Both the position numbers and the translations under genes were made by a program. The notes beneath the pieces were generated by a model. The model worked only from the letters and a program-made list of their open reading frames with translations. It was not told the origin of the DNA and ran no database searches. From Rhizobium sp. Q54 (GTDB lineage: Bacteria; Pseudomonadota; Alphaproteobacteria; UBA2966; CAIVPW01): DNA of 64,000 nucleotides. Shown piece after piece: positions 4,876 through 53,869 of this stretch. Each line of letters begins with the position of its first letter. The first letter of the stretch is position 1. The stretch lies in contig CAMDPO010000001.1 in NCBI GenBank assembly GCA_945904955.1, positions 28,293 to 92,292 of the forward strand, given 5' to 3'.

Positions 4876-4960
4876 TGTTGTTCCTCAGAACCTCATGCTG
4901 AGCCTGTCGAAGCATTAGGCGTGGTGAGCCTCGTCCTTCGACAAGCTCAGGACGAAGCAA
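4876..4960. repeat. REP-like hairpin element (CTGAGCYTGTCGAAG ... CTTCGACARGCTCAG), same family as 23750-23822
   Basis: Imperfect inverted repeat ctcatgctgagcctgtcgaag / cttcgacaagctcaggacgaag with a loop of about 22 nt. A second copy of the core lies in the eno-ftsB spacer. Confidence 0.6.
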
Positions 4961-4966
4961 GCGTTG

Positions 4967-6376
4967 TCAGTTCGGTGCGCCCGGAACTCCGCCCTGGCCG
5001 CCGCGTTCGTTGGCGACGCCGAGCGCCTTGAGCTTGCGGTGCAGGGCCGAGCGTTCCATGCCGACGAAGCTTGCGGTGCGCGAGACGTTGCCGCCGAAGC
5101 GGGTGATCTGGGCGGTGAGGTACTCGCGCTCGAATACCTCCCGCGCTTCGCGCAGGGCCAGCGACATGATGTCCTCGGCGCCGGACGGCAGCACCGTGGC
5201 GATGGTGCCGGCGCCGAGCTCGGCCGGCAGCATCGAGGCCTGGATCACCGGCGCGTCGGACGGCGCCATGATGAGCAGGCGCTCGATCAGGTTGCGCAGC
5301 TCGCGCACGTTACCGGGCCACTCGTAGGCCTGGAGGATCGCCATGGCGTCCTCGTCGATCTCGCGGCCAGGCAGGCCGGTGCTCTCGGCGGTGCGGCGGA
5401 TGAAATGGCGCGCCAGCATCGGGATGTCCTCGCGGCGGTCGCGCAGGGCCGGCACGCGGATCGGCACAACGTTGAGGCGGTGGAACAGATCTTCGCGGAA
5501 GCGGCCGAGGGCGATCTCATCGTGCAGGTCGCGCGATGACGCCGAGATGACGCGCACGTCGACCTGGATCTTGGTGGTGCCGCCGACGCGCTCGAAGGTC
5601 TGGTCCTGGAGCACGCGCAGGATCTTGGCCTGGGTTTCGAGGGGCATGTCGGCGACGTGGTCGAGGAACAGCGTGCCACCGTGGGCCTGCTCGAAGGTGC
5701 CGACCTTGCGGGCGCCGCCGCTGATCCCGTCCTCCGTGCCGAACAGTTCGACTTCCATGCGTTCGGGCGCCATCGCCGCGGCGTTGACGACGACGAACGG
5801 GCCGTCGGCGCGCTTGGACATGGAATGCACCATGCGCGCCACGACTTCCTTGCCCGAGCCGGGCGGTCCGGAGATGAGCACGCGGCTGCCGGTCGGCGCG
5901 ACCTTCTCGACGGCGTTGTGCAGCGCGGTGACGGCCGGCGAGGTACCGATCAGATCGGTCTCGGGTCCGCCGCGCAGGCGCAGCTCGCGATTCTCGCGGC
6001 GCAGGCGCGCCGCTTCGATGCCGCGCCGCACCATGGTGATGAGACGGTCGGCCTGGAAAGGCTTCTCGATGTAGTCGTAGGCGCCGGCCTTGATGGCAGC
6101 GACGGCGGTTTCGATGTTGCCGTGGCCGGAGATCATGATCACCGGCAGGTCGGGATCGTCGGCGAGCACGCGCTCCAGCACCTTGAAGCCGTCGATAGCG
6201 CTGCCGTTCAACCAGATGTCGAGGATGAGCAGCGTGGGCAGGCGCGCACGCATGCCTTCGAGGCCGGCCTCGGCGCTGGCGGCCGAGCGCGCCTGGTAAC
6301 CCTCGTCCTGGAGGATGCCGGACACGAGCTCGCAGATGTCGGCTTCGTCGTCGACGATCAGGATGTCATGCGCCAT
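4967..6376 (-). CDS. ntrX: sigma-54-dependent response regulator NtrX
   Basis: Receiver domain (DDEADI...D54), AAA+ sigma-54 interaction domain (GPPGSGKE, GAFTGA-like ESELFG, arginine finger) and a C-terminal HTH. It follows ntrY. Confidence 0.9.
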   Translation of the reverse strand: MAHDILIVDDEADICELVSGILQDEGYQARSAASAEAGLEGMRARLPTLLILDIWLNGSAIDGFKVLERVLADDPDLPVIMISGHGNIETAVAAIKAGAYDYIEKPFQADRLITMVRRGIEAARLRRENRELRLRGGPETDLIGTSPAVTALHNAVEKVAPTGSRVLISGPPGSGKEVVARMVHSMSKRADGPFVVVNAAAMAPERMEVELFGTEDGISGGARKVGTFEQAHGGTLFLDHVADMPLETQAKILRVLQDQTFERVGGTTKIQVDVRVISASSRDLHDEIALGRFREDLFHRLNVVPIRVPALRDRREDIPMLARHFIRRTAESTGLPGREIDEDAMAILQAYEWPGNVRELRNLIERLLIMAPSDAPVIQASMLPAELGAGTIATVLPSGAEDIMSLALREAREVFEREYLTAQITRFGGNVSRTASFVGMERSALHRKLKALGVANERGGQGGVPGAPN

Positions 6377-41048: not shown

Positions 41049-41080
41049 GAAATAGGCGTTCCACTCGATGGAAGGTCAAG
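41049..41080 (-). promoter_or_regulatory. putative MerR-type promoter with long spacer and dyad operator
   Basis: On the minus strand: TTGACC, then 19 bp containing the dyad TTCCA-N5-TGGAA, then TATTTC, about 40 nt upstream of the regulator start. Confidence 0.3.
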
Positions 41081-46620: not shown

Positions 46621-48858
46621 ATGAACGCGTTTCCGGGCCGCACCGCGCTCGCCACCGCCACGGAATCGGCCGATCTGGAGGATGCGCTGCGCGCCGCCGC
46701 CGCCGCGCGCACCGAGCCCTGCCCCTACAAGGCCCTGCCCGACGACGCGCGCTGGGGAGCCGCCGGCTCGGCAATAATTGCCCAGCATGCGCCGCGCTTC
46801 CGCGTGTCGCGCACGACGCGCATCGCCACCGCCGGCAGCTGCTTCGCCCAACACTTCGGGCGCTGGCTGCAGGCCAACGGCTACGCCTACGTCATCGCGG
46901 AACCCGGCCCGCTTGCCCTCGATGCGGAGCAGCAACGCCTGCAAGGCTACGGCGTCTACTCGGCGCGCACCGGCAGTGTCTACACGCCGCGCCAGCTCGT
47001 GCAGCTATTCGACCGCGCCCACGGCGCCTTCGTCCCATCCGAGCACCCGTGGCCCCAGGGCGATGGCTTCGTCGATCCGTTCCGCCCGCGCGTGCAACCG
47101 CTGCCGTTTCCGTCCCTCGAAGCCCTCGCCGCGGATCGCGCCCAACACTTCGCCGCGGTGCGCGAAGCGTTCGCGACCTGCGAGCTGTTCGTCTTCACCC
47201 TCGGCCTGACCGAGGCGTGGCGCAGCCGCGCCGACGGCGCAGTATTCCCGACCTGCCCCGGCTGCGGCGCCGGCACCTTTGCCGCCGCCGACTACGAGTT
47301 CGTGAACTTCAGCGTCGAGGAGACGGAGGCCGACCTCGAGGCATTCGTCGCGCGTCTCGCCGGCGTCAATCCACGCGCCCGCGTGCTGCTCACGGTCTCC
47401 CCGGTTCCCCTCGTCGCGACCATGGCCGGCCGCCCGGCGCTGCAAAGCAGCGTGTACTCGAAGTCGGTTCTGCGCGTCGCTACCCAGCGCGTCCGCGATC
47501 GCCACGCCCACGTCGAATACTTTGCGTCCTACGAGATGGTGACGCACCCGTATCACACCCAGCCGGCCTTCGCCCCGGACCGCCGCACGGTGACGACCGC
47601 CACCGTCGCGCGGGTCATGCAGGCATTCGCGCAGCACTTCGTCTCGGACCATGCCGACGCCGCCGACCCGCCGCCGAACGTGGATGCCGGCGCCATCGCG
47701 CGCATCGAGGCCGCCAGCGACGGCGGGCGCGAACAATCGATCTGCGACGAAGTCGCCGCCTACGCCCTGCAGATGCCGGCGGACGAGCTGCTCGCGTCGC
47801 GCCCCTGGGAGCTCTACGCGGGCACCACCAGCACGGTGTATTGCCCCGCAGAATTCCGCGCTGCGACCGGACAGGTCGACAAGACTCTGTATCCGCCCAT
47901 CGGCTACGAGTTGCGCGCCCACGCCGCCGTGACCTCGTGGCTCGACGCCGTTGGTGCCAGTGCCGGCGACGGAATCACCCTGTGCCTCGGCGGCTCCACG
48001 ACCGCGCGCAGCAGCAACTGGCCCTTCCATCTGCATCGCCTGCTCGGCGCTGGGCCGGTGCTCAACCTAGGCGCCAACGGCTCAGTCGCCGCGTTCGATC
48101 GCCGCATTCTGGCGGCCGTCGCCGAGCCCCTGATCCAACGCGGCATCCCGATCCGTCGTGCCATTCACCTGGTCGGCTACAACGACGTCCACGCCCGCCT
48201 GGTTTCCCTTGCCCGCTTCGCGCGCGGCGAGCAGCCGGACTATGCGAGCGACCACGACTGCGCCGGCATTGTCGGCCTTGTGGCGCCGCCGCGACCGCGT
48301 CTCGGGCACAGCGTGCGGCGGCCGCGCAATGACGACGAAGATCTCTCCCTGTTCCTGCCGGGCGCCGCCTGGGAGCATCACCTGACCCGCATGGTGACTG
48401 CCGCGATCGACGGGGTCGGCGCCGAAGCCTCCCGCCTTGGCATTCCCTTCACCACGGTCCTGCAGCCGATCGCCACGGATCTCTTCTATCCGCTGTACGG
48501 GCGAGTCATGCGCTCGCTGTTCGAGCACGCTGCCGGCGCCGATGTCGCTCCACCGGTGGCCCGCCTGCCCGGCGAATCATTCCTCGCCTGGCGCCGGCGC
48601 AATCATTTCTCGCGCTGTGCCGGCGAGAATGCCGCGATGGCCAAGGCCGCCACCCTGGGCTACGACCTCGACGTCGATGGGATTTACCAAGGGCTCGTCG
48701 ACCACTTCCGCGAGCGCGAGCACGCGGGCTACGTCGACTTGTCGATGGCCTGCATCTACCGCGAGTCGCCGCAGTTCCTCTTCAAGTGGGATGCCTGCCA
48801 CTACAGCCCGGCGGGCGCGGCCATCGTCGCCGACGAAATCCGAAGAGCGCTGCGCTAG
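46621..48858 (+). CDS. two-domain protein: N-terminal GSCFA-family domain fused to a C-terminal SGNH/GDSL-type hydrolase-like domain
   Basis: The literal GSCFA motif (RIATAGSCFAQHFGRWL) is near the N-terminus. The C-terminal half carries SGNH blocks I (ITLCLGGSTT), II (NLGANGS), III (VGYNDV) and V (WDACHYSPAG). Start taken at MNAFPGRT (46621), with an alternative at 46534. Confidence 0.6.
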   Translation: MNAFPGRTALATATESADLEDALRAAAAARTEPCPYKALPDDARWGAAGSAIIAQHAPRFRVSRTTRIATAGSCFAQHFGRWLQANGYAYVIAEPGPLALDAEQQRLQGYGVYSARTGSVYTPRQLVQLFDRAHGAFVPSEHPWPQGDGFVDPFRPRVQPLPFPSLEALAADRAQHFAAVREAFATCELFVFTLGLTEAWRSRADGAVFPTCPGCGAGTFAAADYEFVNFSVEETEADLEAFVARLAGVNPRARVLLTVSPVPLVATMAGRPALQSSVYSKSVLRVATQRVRDRHAHVEYFASYEMVTHPYHTQPAFAPDRRTVTTATVARVMQAFAQHFVSDHADAADPPPNVDAGAIARIEAASDGGREQSICDEVAAYALQMPADELLASRPWELYAGTTSTVYCPAEFRAATGQVDKTLYPPIGYELRAHAAVTSWLDAVGASAGDGITLCLGGSTTARSSNWPFHLHRLLGAGPVLNLGANGSVAAFDRRILAAVAEPLIQRGIPIRRAIHLVGYNDVHARLVSLARFARGEQPDYASDHDCAGIVGLVAPPRPRLGHSVRRPRNDDEDLSLFLPGAAWEHHLTRMVTAAIDGVGAEASRLGIPFTTVLQPIATDLFYPLYGRVMRSLFEHAAGADVAPPVARLPGESFLAWRRRNHFSRCAGENAAMAKAATLGYDLDVDGIYQGLVDHFREREHAGYVDLSMACIYRESPQFLFKWDACHYSPAGAAIVADEIRRALR

Positions 48859-50996
48859 GTTCCGCTCCGCGGTAGGACCCACGGACGCGCGCCGCGCGTT
48901 TGCGCGACGGACTGCACGCGGACGTCGCCGCCGCTGATCCACACGGCGTGCGCGCCGGATCGCCACATGTCCAGGCGATCGAGGACGACGGGCGCGCCAC
49001 AACGGACAAAGACCGCCACGGCCGCGACGACCACGTCCGCCGCACGACAATCCTCGGCCAGCGCCTCCTCGTGCTGCACCAGCGCGACCGTGACGCCGTC
49101 GGTGCGATAGAGGCAGCCAGTGCCGTCGCAACGCAGCCGGCCGTCGCCAGTGGCGTTGCCCGAGGCCGGCCAACGCCCGCCGCTCTCGCGGCCATCGCGG
49201 CGCAGCCAGGTGTCCACCGTGAAGTTGGAACGCGCAGACGAGACCCACAGGCCGCCGTCGGCGGCGCGCACCGCGAGATATGCCGCGTCCTCGCTCACCA
49301 GCACGTCCGGACGTGCGACCAGGACCGTGCTGAATAGGCCGAGCGCCAGCACAGGAATACCCACCAGACGCCAACGCGTCTGCCACAGGCAGAGCCACAG
49401 TCCAGAAATGGTAACCAGCGCGAGCCCGGCGACCGGCATCGCCGGCAGCGTGATGGCGGCGCCCGGCCACTCGGCGACCGCCTTGCCGATCGCCAGCATC
49501 CAATCGATGCCCCAACCCATCGGGTGCAGGGCCATCCATTCGAGACCGAGCGGCATCAAGGCAAATGCGGCGACCGCCCACGGCATGATCCACAGGCCAG
49601 TGATCGGCACGGCGACGAGGTTGGCGGCGAGCGAGTAGGTCGAGAACCGGTCGAAGTGGTAGAGCGCGAACGGCGCCGTGGCGAGACCGGCGACCAATGT
49701 CGAAAGCCCGACGCCGAACAGGTACAGCGCTGCCTTGCGCACGAACCCGGCGTTGCGTCCCCAGCGCGCGAACACCTCACGCGCGAGCTCATAGGCCGCG
49801 ATCAGTGCGACGACGGCCGCGAACGACATCTGGAAGCTCGGGCCGAGCAAGCTGTGCGGAGCGACGAGCAGCACTGCTGCCGCGGCCCACGCGACGAGCC
49901 GCATCGAGAACGGCCGCCGGTCGAGCAGAATCGCCACCATCGCAAGTCCGAGCATCAGGAACGAGCGCTCGGTCGGCGCGTTGGCTCCGGCCAGCAGGAA
50001 GTACCCGAAGCACCCGAGCAGCGCGACCGCCGCTGCCCACTTCTTGATGGGAAAGCGCAAGGCGACGGGCTCGATCGCCGCCAATGCCGCGCGGGTGATG
50101 AAGAACAGAATGCCGGCGAGCAGGCCGAAATGGAGGCCAGAAATCGAGATGATATGGGCGAGACCGGAGTCGCGTAGCGCCGCCCACGTCTTGTCGTCGA
50201 TGCCGGCGCGCTCGCCAGTCGTCAGGGCGGAGGCTACCGCACCAGTTTGTCCGTCGAGAACGGCATGAATGCGTTGGGACAGACCGTGGCGTACCGCCGC
50301 GATCGAGTCGCCCCAGCCAGGGTCGGCCGGCTCGAGCACGGTCGCGGCGGTGACTGCATAGCCGACCGCGCCGATGCGCTCGAACCAGGCTTGGCGCGCG
50401 AAGTCGAACGCGCCGGGCGCCGCCGGGGGCGACGGCGGCAAGAGGACTGCGCGCAGGCTGACGCGTTGGCTCGGCGCAATCGCCGCGCCGCGCGCGCGCA
50501 CCGTCACGCGAATGCGCGCCGGCGTTGCGTCTTGTTCGAGGCCGCTGATGACGACATCGGCCAGCGTAAGGCGCCGATCGTCGGGACGTTGCTCGACGAG
50601 TACCACGCGACCGGTGACAGCGACCGGTCCGATCTCGCGCGGCACCACGGGAGCGGCGACCATCGCCGTGCGAACCTGAGCGGCCGCGAACCCCAGGCCG
50701 CTGACGGCGAGGACGAGCGCGAGCAGCATTCCGCCGGTGCGGGCGCGTAACGCGAATCCGATGGCGATCGCGAGGGCCACCCAGGTCGGACCCAGCCACA
50801 GCGAAGGCTCGAATCGCAGCGCGAAGTAGACGACCACGCCCAGGCCCAGTGCGACCGGGAGCCACAGAGCCCATCGCTCGCGCTCAGCGAGGAAGATGGC
50901 GACGACGCGACGCCACGCCGCCGCTGCGATCAGCGGGCGCGCGGCGGCCGGCGCATCACGCTCCAGGTGCATCGCCCCTCCTCGCGCGAGGCGCAA
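48855..50996 (-). CDS. comEC: ComEC/Rec2 family competence membrane protein
   Basis: 713 aa, multi-pass membrane competence domain (ISGLHFGLLAGILFF) and a C-terminal metallo-beta-lactamase-like region. An alternative start is at 50972. Confidence 0.82.
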   Translation of the reverse strand: MRLARGGAMHLERDAPAAARPLIAAAAWRRVVAIFLAERERWALWLPVALGLGVVVYFALRFEPSLWLGPTWVALAIAIGFALRARTGGMLLALVLAVSGLGFAAAQVRTAMVAAPVVPREIGPVAVTGRVVLVEQRPDDRRLTLADVVISGLEQDATPARIRVTVRARGAAIAPSQRVSLRAVLLPPSPPAAPGAFDFARQAWFERIGAVGYAVTAATVLEPADPGWGDSIAAVRHGLSQRIHAVLDGQTGAVASALTTGERAGIDDKTWAALRDSGLAHIISISGLHFGLLAGILFFITRAALAAIEPVALRFPIKKWAAAVALLGCFGYFLLAGANAPTERSFLMLGLAMVAILLDRRPFSMRLVAWAAAAVLLVAPHSLLGPSFQMSFAAVVALIAAYELAREVFARWGRNAGFVRKAALYLFGVGLSTLVAGLATAPFALYHFDRFSTYSLAANLVAVPITGLWIMPWAVAAFALMPLGLEWMALHPMGWGIDWMLAIGKAVAEWPGAAITLPAMPVAGLALVTISGLWLCLWQTRWRLVGIPVLALGLFSTVLVARPDVLVSEDAAYLAVRAADGGLWVSSARSNFTVDTWLRRDGRESGGRWPASGNATGDGRLRCDGTGCLYRTDGVTVALVQHEEALAEDCRAADVVVAAVAVFVRCGAPVVLDRLDMWRSGAHAVWISGGDVRVQSVAQTRGARPWVLPRSGT

Positions 50997-51050
50997 TCAT
51001 GTGCCGAGGGTGACCGGCCAGCCAAGGCCGCGACGCGCTCGGGCGGCCTT

Positions 51051-51089
51051 CAAAAAAGCGAAAGGGGAGCAAGCAGGGCTTGCTCCCCT
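51051..51089 (-). terminator. rho-independent terminator for the small secreted-protein gene
   Basis: GGGGAGCAAGC-aggg-CTTGCTCCCC stem-loop followed on the minus strand by TTTTTTG, about 25 nt downstream of the stop at 51112. Confidence 0.5.
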
Positions 51090-51111
51090 CGCGCGATGCA
51101 AAGCTTCCGTT

Positions 51112-51441
51112 TTACTGGAAGCTGATCTGGCTGCAGGCGTTGCCCGGAAGGGGCGGCGCACCCGGCTGGCCGAGGCCCGGCCCGGTGTACGTCACATAGA
51201 TAGCGCGGCCCGCGGCGATCGTGGCGGGCACGGAGATATTCGCGGCCACGACGCAGGTGAACGGCGTGTGCGGCACGATGAGGCCGCTGCGCAGAGTCAG
51301 CGTCCGCGTAGCGCCATCCCACGACTGAAAGACCACGTTGGGTGCGCCCTGGTTGGGTCCCCCGAGTTCAGCAGCGAGCGTCACGCCTGGGACCAAGAGA
51401 CCAACTGCAAGAATTCCCGCAGCAATCGTATTCATATTCAT
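51112..51441 (-). CDS. small secreted hypothetical protein (about 109 aa)
   Basis: The start MNMNTIAAGILAVGLLVPGVTLAAE (signal peptide) is preceded by GGAGGAAAAC. The mature part is Gly/Pro/Thr-rich with 2 Cys. The gene is followed by a strong terminator. Confidence 0.45.
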   Translation of the reverse strand: MNMNTIAAGILAVGLLVPGVTLAAELGGPNQGAPNVVFQSWDGATRTLTLRSGLIVPHTPFTCVVAANISVPATIAAGRAIYVTYTGPGLGQPGAPPLPGNACSQISFQ

Positions 51442-51786
51442 GTTTTCCTCCCGAGGAATCGGCTCCGCCAAAGGCTGTCGCAGGGGGTGGTGGACCGTCT
51501 GTAGTTACGCGCTGCCTGGCCCTTCTGGCGGGGTCGGGCACAACGATATCCATTCTCGGGCGGAAGGACAATTGCTCTCCCGATTCAACCTTTGCGGGAG
51601 GTGTCGGTCGTTAGTTTTTCCGGCACAACGATTCTTGGGCGTTCTCTCCTTTACTTTGTCGTTGTGGCCGTTGGCGGTCGGTCGATTCGAAAAATCCTTG
51701 GCACTTCTTGCGGCGACCGTTCGAAACTGGCTCGCGTACACGGAGGGAGGGCAGGGCGCGCGGGCCAACGCGGGGGCGATCCCCAC

Positions 51787-51815
51787 TTGACGAATACGTA
51801 ACGTACCTTACATTG
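51787..51815 (+). promoter_or_regulatory. putative sigma70-type promoter with embedded 11-bp palindrome upstream of the DUF5681-like gene
   Basis: TTGACG, a 16-17-bp spacer containing TACGTAACGTA, then TACATT. It is followed by AGGAGAG and the ATG at 51848. The region 51480-51840 has lower GC than the flanks. Confidence 0.3.
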
Positions 51816-51847
51816 TGGGTTGAATAAGCACGGGATAGGAGAGCCCG

Positions 51848-52416
51848 ATGACCGAACGCTCCGCAACCTCGCCCCCGCCGCCCTCGCCTATTTCAGCCGC
51901 CAGCGTGTCGCCTATTTCGCCGCATGCGGCCGCGCCTATTTCCCGCGCGAAGCCGCGCGGCCGTCCCTTCCAGAAGGGCCAGGGCGGCCGACCAAAGGCT
52001 CGCGCAACAAGCTGACCTTGATGCGGGAGGCCTTGGCCGGTCACCACGCCGATGCCGTCGTGCAGCTCGCCCTCGCAGGAAACCGTCTCGCCACGATCGC
52101 GCTGATGGAGGCGCTCGTGCCGCCGCGCGCGTCGCCGGCCGTCGCAGAGATATCGGAGCCTCTCGATTCGGCGCGTCAGGGTGCGGCTGCCATGCAGACA
52201 GTGGTCGGCCTTGTCAGCAAGGGGGCCCTATCGCCTGCCGAAGGGCTTCGCCTCACGCGCCAGATCGATCGCAGTTGGCGCAAGAGCCACAAGGCCCGGC
52301 TCGCCCGCCTGCTTGCCGACGTCACTGGATCTTCCACCGGCGCGCGGGCATCTCGCGACGTCACGGTGCATGCTACAGATGCCGCCCCAACGAGCCCGCC
52401 CGCGCCGACCCGATAG
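51848..52416 (+). pseudogene. DUF5681-like (phage-associated) protein gene disrupted by a -1 frameshift in a poly-A run
   Basis: Frame A from ATG 51848 reads MTERSATSPPPPSPISAASVSPISPHAAAPISRAKPRGRPFQKGQGGRPK and then terminates. Frame B (ORF 51820..52416) continues as GSRNKLTLMREALAGHHADAVVQLALAGN... The joined sequence recreates the RGRPFQKGQ-GRPKGSRNK motif. The switch occurs at aaa (about 51994-51996), where aaaa would restore the frame. Confidence 0.45.
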
Positions 52417-52432
52417 AGCAGCACGTACATCC

Positions 52433-53869
52433 ATGGCCCCAATCGTTCGCTTCGCCCCCTCGCCCACCGGCTACCTGCACATCGGCAGCGCCCGCACCGC
52501 CCTGTTCAATTGGCTGTTCGCCAAGCACACCGGCGGCCAGTTCCTGCTGCGCGTCGAGGACACCGACGCAGAGCGTTCGACCCAGCCGGCCGTTGCAGCG
52601 ATCTTTGCCGGGCTGCGTTGGCTCGGTTTGAATTGGGACGGCGACGTCGTCCTGCAGTCAAAGCGCGCGCCGCGCCATCGCGAGGTCGCCGAGGCCATGC
52701 TCGCCGCGGGCAATGCCTACCGCTGCTACTGCTCGCCCGCCGAGCTGGAGCAGATGCGCGCCGAGCAGAAGGCCGCCGGCCAGCCCATGCGCTACGACGG
52801 CCGCTGGCGCGATCGCTCGCCGGCGGACGCCCCGCCCGGCGTGAAGCCGGTCATCCGTCTCAAAGCGCCGCGCGAGGGCGAGGTCATCATCAAGGACCTC
52901 GTCCAGGGCGACGTACGCATTGCCGCCGACCAGCTCGACGACATGGTGCTGCTGCGCGCCGACGGCAGCCCGACCTACATGCTCGCCGTCGTGGTGGACG
53001 ACTACGACATGGCGATCACCCACATCATCCGCGGCGTCGATCACCTGAATAACGCGGCGCGCCAGATGCAGATCTACCGCGCCATGGGCTGGACGGTGCC
53101 GGAGTTCGCCCATATCCCGCTCATCCACGGCCCCGACGGCGCTAAGCTGTCAAAGCGCCACGGCGCCCTCGGCGTCGAGGAGTACGAGAAGATGGGCTAC
53201 CGTCCCGAGGCCATGCGCAACTACCTGGCGCGCCTCGGCTGGGCGCACGGCGACGACGAGATCTTCTCGACCAAGCAGGCGATCGAGTGGTTCACCCTCG
53301 ACCGCATCGGCCGCTCGGCGGCGCGCTTCGACTACGACAAGCTGCGCAGCCTGAATTCCCACTACTTGGTGACGGCCGCCACCGAAGACCCCGATGGCCT
53401 GGTGCGCGAGGTGATCGACCGCATCCCGCGCCTCCGCGACATTGACCCGGCCCTGGCGGCCCCGGCCGCCGCTCTGCATCCGGCAGCGGCGGCACGCTTG
53501 AAGATGCTGATGTCCGAGCTCGCCAAGCGGGCCAAGGATATGAACGAGCTCGCCTTCAGCGCGGTGCCGTTCGCGACGAGCGGCGCCTTAGTGATGGATC
53601 CGAAGGCAGAGGCGCTGCTCAAGCCCGAGGCACGCGCCATGCTCGGCCGCCTCGCCACGGCTCTGTCCGCGGTCGCCGAGTGGTCCGTGACCGCCCTCGA
53701 TGTCGCGGTGCGTGCGTTCGCCGAGGCGGAGGCCCGCAAGTTGGGCGACGTTGCCCAGCCGATGCGCGCCGCCCTCGCCGGCCGCACCGTTTCGCCGGGC
53801 GTGTTCGAGGTGATGGTCGCCCTGGGCCGCGACGACAGTTTGACGCGCCTGCGCGCCCAGGCGACGTAG
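52433..53869 (+). CDS. gltX: glutamate--tRNA ligase
   Basis: HIGH ([14 protein letters not shown]) and KMSKS-like (KLSKRHG) class I motifs, 478 aa. Confidence 0.92.

Follow-up and report, generated by a model that had tools for sequence, protein, structure and literature searches.

The question raised by this locus is what lies between comEC and gltX in the 64,000-nt stretch of Rhizobium sp. Q54 (contig CAMDPO010000001.1) that we analysed as a whole and refer to as the window, and what has become of a gene with an interrupted reading frame that is placed there. We call this frameshifted DUF5681-type gene dufL, and the small gene next to it together with dufL the cassette. dufL is a broken new member of a known, uncharacterised family in an unusual chromosomal position. 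With a probability of roughly 0.68 we regard it as a recent pseudogene or at best a split gene, that is, as an ordinary decaying domesticated gene in an old insert which contains no active mobile element. The two cassette genes would have entered the gap between comEC and gltX long ago and been passed on vertically in an uncultured alphaproteobacterial clade, for which metagenome assemblies, in several cases from lakes, are the only source of sequence. The cassette would encode a small secreted orphan protein and, with dufL, a divergent member of the phage-associated DUF5681 family, whose protein would be truncated after 55 amino acids (aa) by a single-base deletion in 51992-51998.

The reading frame of dufL can be restored by adding one base in 51992-51998. 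This gives a 189-aa protein which aligns from end to end with intact 176-aa orthologues as well as with DUF5681 proteins, and which is collinear with the intact 176-aa P0002, P0003 and L105. The search with this merged protein, as proposed by the initial annotation, found the protein's own public entry (P0001), the intact 176-aa orthologues P0002 and P0003 at ~70% identity and a 139-aa orthologue (P0005), while phmmer found PF18932-annotated proteins at 29-40% identity. In the PHROGs collection a weak match to phrog_8771 (2.6e-4) covers residues 35-65 of the merged protein, where the motif is located, and NCBIfam returned nothing meaningful for this protein or for the 109-aa product of the small gene. 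When an alignment of four clade sequences (A4) was compared by hhalign with one of 23 PF18932-positive proteins (A5), the two matched with a probability of 99.6% (E 9.8e-24, 136 columns). Residues G47, R48, G51, R53, N54, A75, G78 and G126 are invariant in alignment A3. By profile-profile homology and motif the dufL product is a divergent member of the DUF5681 (PF18932) family, so that the DUF5681-like, phage-associated family suspected by the initial annotation is borne out, although a direct Pfam match is absent.

The AlphaFold model of the protein (pLDDT 81.6) has 54 disordered N-terminal residues followed by helices at 55-64, 68-76, 80-90, 109-125 and 130-176. The N-terminus is thus predicted to be disordered and basic, with AT-hook-like RGRP...GRPKGSRNK motifs, and the C-terminal half is helical in the model and probably oligomerising. 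Fold searches returned generic helical matches only and recovered no solved fold of a small terminase subunit (TerS); a sequence profile search of the PDB found no relative with a solved structure, and a query with the 35-aa motif gave no match. The elements PRGRP and GGRPKGSRNK were recognised by inspection, and the Pfam AT_hook profile is not matched. Among PDB entries the family profile gave a single DNA-binding match, to the HMG-I/Y peptide 2ezd over profile positions 46-59, which falls short of significance (E 0.46). A DUF5681 protein is named among the virion peptides in a paper on a phage proteome (PMC8954984); beyond this one listing, the literature on DUF5681, or on AT-hooks combined with small terminases, yielded nothing informative.

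The first open reading frame (ORF) of dufL, ORF1 (51848-52015), extends from the N-terminal tail through the RGRP motif into the GRPKG motif. After 55 aa it is closed by a premature stop that follows ...KPRGRPFQKGQGGRPKARATS, while the -1 frame goes on as ...GRPTKGSRNKLTLMREAL... to 52416. Where the orthologues read GGC CGG CCC AAG GGC GCG CGC AAC AAG, the window reads GGC CGA CC AAA GGC TCG CGC AAC AAG. Going by this alignment the missing base could be C, A or G: a lost C or G requires two extra synonymous substitutions each, a lost A three. The -1 frameshift that the initial annotation had put into the AAA run at 51994-51996 is therefore present, but the slip in AAA is the least parsimonious of the three possible deletion sites. 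The 11 bases at 51989-51999 read CGACCAAAGGC in the window, and CGACCAAAAGGC, CGACCCAAAGGC or CGACCAAAGGGC in versions that would give an intact gene.

The same frameshift allele is found in the Logan contig L001, which is 100% identical, and in the ENA contig L002 from another assembly, which is 99.67% identical with 6 single nucleotide polymorphisms (SNPs) in 1819 nt (at 50783, 51202, 51269, 51270, 51275 and 51553), none of them within dufL. Because the allele thus occurs in a second population which differs by 6 SNPs, it is probably not an assembly error. No intact dufL allele above 70% identity could be found among 5.8 billion protein clusters. As read from the assembled contigs, the frameshift is real and lineage-specific. 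A second lineage (L003) carries an independent one-base deletion at the non-slippery site GTG-TCGG, seen in three assemblies.

In the public databases the locus is represented by a 198-aa product (P0001), called alike in NCBI, Logan ERR5863121 and ENA ERZ27280264. This call (51820-52416) mis-frames the N-terminal third of dufL. We rejected it as a real product, as its TTG start at 51820 lies 6 nt past the -10 hexamer of the promoter, has no Shine-Dalgarno (SD) sequence, and opens a frame without the conserved N-terminal motif.

The features of the locus are, in the coordinates of the window:

48855-50996, minus strand: comEC, left boundary (Pfam Competence 1.2e-67, DUF4131 2.4e-16; gene call in L001)

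51052-51090, minus strand: terminator-like hairpin and T-run 3' of the small gene (stem 51062-51090 with 13 pairs, 8 of them G-C; tail TCGCTTTTTT)

51112-51441, minus strand: small gene, an ORF of 109 aa, with GGAGGA preceding the start

51442-51847: non-coding spacer of 406 nt, 59% GC, with a core (51466-51610) and a lower-GC segment (51610-51785)

51787-51814, plus strand: sigma70-like promoter TTGACG-16-TACATT, the sole match in the region (0.2 expected from shuffles)

51795-51805: palindrome TACGTAACGTA within the promoter spacer

51848-52015, plus strand: dufL ORF1, 55 aa, with SD AGGAG at 51837-51841 and stop TGA at 52013-52015; the start codon is conserved in orthologues

51992-51998, plus strand: frameshift site CC-AAA-GG, one base short in comparison to the orthologous CCC AAG GGC

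51997-52416, plus strand: downstream part of dufL in the -1 frame, GSRNKLTLMREAL...PAPTR and stop, predicted helical domain, open to TAG at 52414-52416

52372-52386, plus strand: GCTACAGATGCCGCC element, conserved at the nucleotide level upstream of gltX and overlapped by the dufL 3' tail in the window clade

52433-53869, plus strand: gltX (glutamyl-tRNA synthetase), right boundary (Pfam tRNA-synt_1c 1.2e-92, Anticodon_2)

The likely start of comEC is ATG 50972, which gives 705 aa, as called in Logan. All features described by the initial annotation for its stretch of about 1.4 kb could be located, and the gap between comEC and gltX measures 1436 nt.

How old the insert is was approached by a gltX-anchored scan of 80 alphaproteobacteria, one genome per species. 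In ~70 of these 80 related genomes comEC and gltX are divergent neighbours, mostly 15-250 nt apart, which agrees with the adjacency in many relatives that had been noted before. A few of the ~70 outgroup genomes hold other genes between the two, and in none of them was a homologue of either cassette gene found at this place. Exact-protein look-ups revealed the order comEC, small gene, dufL, gltX, gltA, lpxB in five diverged lineages, namely the window, L003, L006/L105-L108, L007/L008 and L109/L110; in the L006/L105-L108 lineage the intact dufL protein (P0050) is on record on 16 contigs. L115 would be a sixth lineage in part: it has the small gene, followed by the promoter and only the start of dufL. 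A scan of metagenome contigs gave no further dufL orthologues.

The synonymous divergence (dS) of dufL, 0.30-0.66, compares with 0.28-0.51 for gltX. The ratio of non-synonymous to synonymous divergence (omega) of dufL is 0.36-0.45 overall and 0.08-0.42 in the motif and the helical core, whereas gltX shows 0.12-0.14. The GC content of third codon positions (GC3) is 0.74-0.77 in dufL and 0.76 in the small gene against 0.84-0.91 in the neighbours, which is compatible with a foreign origin or with weak codon selection.

Both cassette genes are absent from L009, the closest GTDB representative, and L010 retains nothing but a 5' stub of dufL. The stub was recognised by eye and with a regular expression; it has the start codon and, unchanged at +17, TGATCCGCGTA. 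Searches of the leaders of L009 and L010 for dufL remnants with tblastn and blastn gave nothing significant. The GltX proteins of L009 and L010 are 78-79% identical to that of the window, and the cassette carrier L110 is equally distant (78%). Because the promoter, and in L010 also the dufL stub, remain in these two lineages, we assume a secondary loss. The simplest history would thus begin with one ancient insertion, after which L009 lost the genes, L010 kept no more than the stub, and L003 and the window each suffered a one-base deletion of their own. This history is provisional, since a single-gene neighbor-joining tree leaves the branching order unresolved. A polymorphism of presence and absence exists at this deep level only, and no close strain with an empty site was found. 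The comparison suggested by the initial annotation therefore confirms an insertion relative to ~70 alphaproteobacteria which is missing in L009, but not one that is variable between strains, as it is syntenic in at least five lineages.

Some further observations concern the same gap. In L115 (reverse strand) 12 consecutive C stand in the 5' untranslated region of dufL, downstream of the promoter; they may form a homopolymer of the contingency type or explain why the contig stops there. At the place of dufL, L010 has an 80-aa proline-rich ORF (434-676) which begins ATGA...TGATCCGCGTA and is for the rest similar to nothing tested. Gaps of 1.2-1.9 kb with different inserted genes occur between comEC and gltX in L020, L043, L049, L054, L061, L070, L071 and L079; by inspection, a 311-aa gene of L043 resembles PfkB-type sugar kinases and a 568-aa gene of L071 a glnS-like tRNA synthetase. 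In L106 (4484-8333), which represents one population of the sister lineage, comEC is cut to 246 aa and followed by unrelated UDG-like, HNH endonuclease and HIT genes, which looks like a strain-level insertion or rearrangement in comEC.

The surroundings of the cassette were studied for traces of mobility. No integrase, recombinase or other phage gene was found in or next to the islet among the Pfam-annotated called genes of L001, L003 and L105-L108; the neighbours are GSCFA, comEC, gltX, gltA and lpxB. The 64-kb window harbours neither a second DUF5681 copy nor a tRNA or tmRNA gene. Att-like direct repeats, which the initial annotation had suggested looking for at the islet edges, were not found there, and only short 70-80% matches occur elsewhere.

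Every cassette lineage has retained the promoter at 51787-51814. L009 and L010 retain it as well, in the form TTGACT-17-TACAT with an ATAC[G/A]TA spacer, and neither has an intact dufL behind it. Because it is present in relatives without an intact dufL, this promoter probably drives gltX. Transcription would start near 51821, and no terminator was found in the 17-nt gap between dufL and gltX. With a shared, conserved sigma70-type promoter on one side and gltX on the other, at 17 nt and with no terminator in the way, dufL most likely leads a joint dufL-gltX transcript as its first cistron.

The last ~45 nt of dufL (CATGCTACAGATGCCGCC...) are invariant across the window-clade orthologues of alignment A1, third codon positions included. 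They overlap an element GCTA-N3-ATGCC(C)GCC (also GCTA-N3-ATGCCGCC) which is located 40-60 nt upstream of gltX with or without dufL. In L009, which has no dufL, it lies at 4959-4973, 42 nt upstream of gltX, and in L109/L110 between the dufL stop and gltX; L010 and more distant relatives do not have it. As it is present without dufL and past the stop of dufL, the GCTA element is, by its conservation, a gltX leader element which has been overrun by the extended dufL reading frame of the window clade. The omega near 1 and low dS of the dufL tail are due to this overlap. A second promoter of gltX (TGnTA-like) is one possible role of the element, a leader signal another. Its overlap with dufL would account for the persistence of the DNA even in lineages that can do without the protein.

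Three copies of CGCCTATTTC are found in the 5' coding region of dufL (51885-51894, 51909-51918 and 51933-51942) with an exact 24-nt period. Together with a fourth copy at 41049-41058 on the minus strand this 10-mer is observed 4 times in the 64-kb window against 0.14 expected. The orthologues possess two copies of CGCGTATTTC, and a 39-nt expansion is specific to the window lineage. The repeat segment shows low dS among orthologues, and the CGCSTATTTC repeats may reflect repetition in the protein ([SP][PR]IS) or serve as a site in the DNA. At the position where the two orthologue copies have G, C is found in all three window repeats, as if they had changed in concert.

A functional lead for the family comes from its phage relatives. 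Ten viral contigs were examined, and six of them have the homologue close to the gene of the large terminase subunit (TerL): it directly adjoins TerL in L091, L096, L100, L092 and L093, and is ~1.7 kb away in L097. In two of the six it overlaps the TerL gene, and in one of these two (L096) a following SU10-type portal gene was confirmed. A phrog_8771-type relative, as an unnamed gene, also overlaps TerL in the Rhizobium phages RHph_N2, RHEph18 and RHph_Y25. In the cyanophage Pam1 of Pseudanabaena (ON014753.1) gp1 is a phrog_8771-type relative annotated as TerS, in the order TerS-TerL-portal-scaffold-capsid; it matches the DUF5681 profile with 77.8% probability (E 1.9e-5, 60 columns). By gene order and motif we infer that the dufL product belongs to a type of small DNA-recognition protein used in phage packaging. 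Two DUF5681 genes without a terminase nearby, one beside a gene for a DUF927 protein (L126) and one beside a PHROG-annotated DNA primase gene (L089), recall phage satellites with their own small terminase.

That dufL is still functional would require either low-level -1 slippage of tRNA-Lys on CCA-AAG-G (A-AAG to AAA-G) or two separate pieces, one of 55 aa and one of 132 aa re-initiated at ATG 52021. A-AAG is known to be slippage-prone, examples being A-AAA-AAG of E. coli dnaX and CGA-AAG of B. subtilis cdd. In the window a -1 shift exactly at AAG 51995-51997 gives ...GGRPKGSRNK... in a register identical to that of the orthologues, and ATG 52021, 5 nt past the ORF1 stop, is conserved in the window clade and in L109/L110. 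The downstream frame is open for 140 codons, and at codons where three other close lineages agree, the changes on the window branch after the frameshift are 6 synonymous and 2 non-synonymous. With ~2.6 non-synonymous sites per synonymous site this 6:2 ratio is not neutral (binomial ~0.01). Either the deletion happened very recently, therefore, or the part after it continues to be translated, and few non-synonymous changes are also expected if the lesion is simply recent. Several features argue against translation by a shift. An X XXY YYZ heptamer is missing: in A CCA AAG (51991-51997) re-pairing is possible for the A-site A-AAG alone; when folded, the 91 nt of RNA from 51985 to 52075 reach a z of -0.97, with 40 of 200 shuffles as good; and there is no clear SD-like stimulator, as no AGGAGG-like element lies 10-14 nt upstream. 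Moreover, the intact orthologues of L006/L105, L007 and L109/L110 stay in one frame with no shift needed, and the break of L003 at a different, non-slippery site fits plain decay. A slippery-run frameshift, offered by the initial annotation as its alternative, is thus unlikely as a programmed event, and a dufL that still works, by whichever route, seems to us unlikely as well.

Less probable still is that dufL is intact in the organism and the frameshift an error of sequencing or assembly. The contig is indeed metagenome-assembled, a single base is missing beside the short runs CC, AAA and GG, and the remaining ORF is intact. Against this stand the identical 198-aa product in three sources, of which the ENA contig represents a different population, and the missing intact allele in the clusters searched; runs of two or three bases are not error-prone in short-read assemblies. 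We therefore consider an error very improbable. Nor do we give much credit to a recently acquired, strain-variable prophage or integrative-element remnant which is now decaying. The family is phage-associated, the cassette is missing in L009 and all more distant relatives and survives as a stub in L010, its GC3 lies below that of the neighbours, and relatives are located in islands resembling mobile elements, as in M. nodulans. Yet the cassette is fixed and syntenic in at least five lineages, its dS equals the gltX value, selection on it is purifying, and integrase, att repeat, tRNA, second DUF5681 copy and nearby phage gene are all missing; the promoter, and the L010 stub, left in lineages without the genes point to an old presence followed by loss. 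Of the decaying remnant of a mobile element or prophage described by the initial annotation, the phage-associated family, the frameshift and the repeated decay (L003, L010, L009) remain, but not the mobile element itself. A far more elaborate scheme, which we regard as a long shot, would see in dufL a domesticated TerS-like, AT-hook leader-cistron protein of the essential gltX operon. It would bind its own AT-rich CGCSTATTTC repeats as a relic pac-like site and/or the palindromic promoter spacer, and would tune dufL-gltX transcription or mark the site for packaging by the terminase of a helper phage or gene transfer agent, with the one-base deletions of two lineages as on/off variants.

The reading of dufL as a recent pseudogene in an old insert also has to face several points that weigh against it. 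The frameshift is read from assembled contigs throughout, so an assembly artefact keeps a small probability. The 140 open downstream codons with their purifying pattern would likewise be expected if expression went on, be it through leaky -1 slippage at A-AAG or because ribosomes re-initiate at ATG 52021. The merged 189-aa protein matches no Pfam family at E<=1 and so stays short of the PF18932 hidden Markov model. The label of small terminase on the relatives comes from gene order and one database annotation, and some relatives are not beside TerL: in L126 (Methylobacterium nodulans CP001349.1, 672191-684640) the DUF5681 gene lies in an island with DUF927, lysozyme-type and IS630-type genes, and in L129, a long contig, the relative stands alone among housekeeping genes. 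Co-transcription of dufL with gltX is suggested by spacing and the missing terminator only, and the order of gains and losses depends on a poorly resolved tree.

The other cassette gene encodes a 109-aa protein with a hydrophobic N-terminus, MNMNTIAAGILAVGLLVPGVTLAA followed by ELG, and a cleavage site, placed by inspection, between LAA and EL. It is judged in this way to be a protein with a putative Sec-type signal peptide; the n-region of the window protein has no basic residue, whereas the orthologues (MKLN..., MKAKAK...) have K. Its mature part contains two Cys. No Pfam, PHROG or NCBIfam family was matched, and only 7 homologues, at 61-95% identity, were found in the search of the 5.8 billion clusters, so that by these searches the small gene is a clade-restricted orphan. 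Its omega is ~0.23 and its position is always between comEC and dufL. The hairpin downstream of it (GGGGAGCAAGC...GCTTGCTCCCC) also occurs in the distant lineage L109/L110 and would insulate comEC from the small-gene transcript. The gene had been described as terminator-flanked; one terminator, 3' of the gene, is present, but not a flanking pair.

The ~400 bp of lower-GC non-coding DNA with a promoter-like element and an 11-bp palindrome noted initially correspond well to the 406-nt spacer, in which 300-nt windows have 55-57% GC against 68-72% in the flanks. Its part 51466-51610 is a conserved core (alignment A2) and represents, by position and conservation, probably the promoter and 5' untranslated region (UTR) of the small gene. 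The lower-GC segment 51610-51785 is common to L115 and L116 and deleted in L003, L006, L007 and L105; a window-specific insertion is ruled out for this segment, as L115 and L116 share it. An Rfam search of 50900-52500 gave no match at E<=1, and for a conserved RNA structure in the small-gene 5' UTR of the spacer the covariation term over 8 lineages was ~0.

Within the putative 5' UTR (51444-51575, minus strand; alignment A6) a conserved CCTTCCGC located ~120 nt upstream could pair with the SD region GCGGGAGG, and a hairpin CCGGCGCC-TGAC-GGCGCCGG of the orthologues shows one compensatory change in L003. One arm of a 23-nt inverted repeat (51515-51537 / 51961-51983; 87% complementary, with the exact 14-mer CCAGAAGGGCCAGG) falls in the spacer hairpin and the other in the stretch of dufL that codes for RPFQKGQ. 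Orthologues do not share this repeat, and by a rough estimate ~0.02-0.05 such matches are expected by chance.

For the annotation of this locus the right description is a DUF5681-family pseudogene with intact orthologues, and not the 198-aa call from TTG 51820. For the DUF5681 family the position of phage members beside TerL, where small terminases are placed, and the AT-hook-like basic motifs provide a testable functional lead. The locus further illustrates how a phage-derived gene can be locked between an essential gene and its promoter: the DNA, the promoter and the leader element persist while the protein decays independently in several lineages. Nothing in this is surprising to a specialist, and the value lies in the annotation and in a small evolutionary case study.

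Comparing dufL with known systems, the closest likeness is that to DUF5681 itself (PF18932), a family of unknown function in Proteobacteria and phages, with which it shares RGRPFxKGQ...GRPKGSRNK, LA..G(D/N)..A..L..ERL.PP, a helical block with G.L.P.E and a similar length. The window clade differs in lacking the SGNP insert between the basic motifs and in having its own N- and C-terminal tails, and while DUF5681 genes of phages stand in a module, the window gene is single, ahead of gltX and frameshifted. With small terminase subunits dufL has in common that its product is small and would begin with a basic segment for DNA recognition, with helices after it, and that its relatives lie just upstream of TerL and portal genes; the context differs, as the window has no TerL, portal or other phage gene and the neighbours are comEC, gltX, gltA and GSCFA. 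The programmed frameshift sites of dnaX and cdd share with the window the A-AAG, found here at CCA-AAG-G, but the window has neither heptamer nor stimulatory structure nor conservation. In the phages P22 and SPP1 the pac sites lie inside the terS genes, and the short repeats in the 5' part of dufL recall this arrangement; the CGCSTATTTC repeats with their 24-nt period in the 5' coding region are the only pac- or cos-like hint for dufL. Finally, the second AT-hook of the eukaryotic protein HMGA1 reads PRGRPKGSKNK, and the R-G-R-P core and GRPKGSRNK of dufL are similar to it, a likeness that would lie in the probable mechanism, binding to the minor groove of AT-rich DNA, and not in descent.

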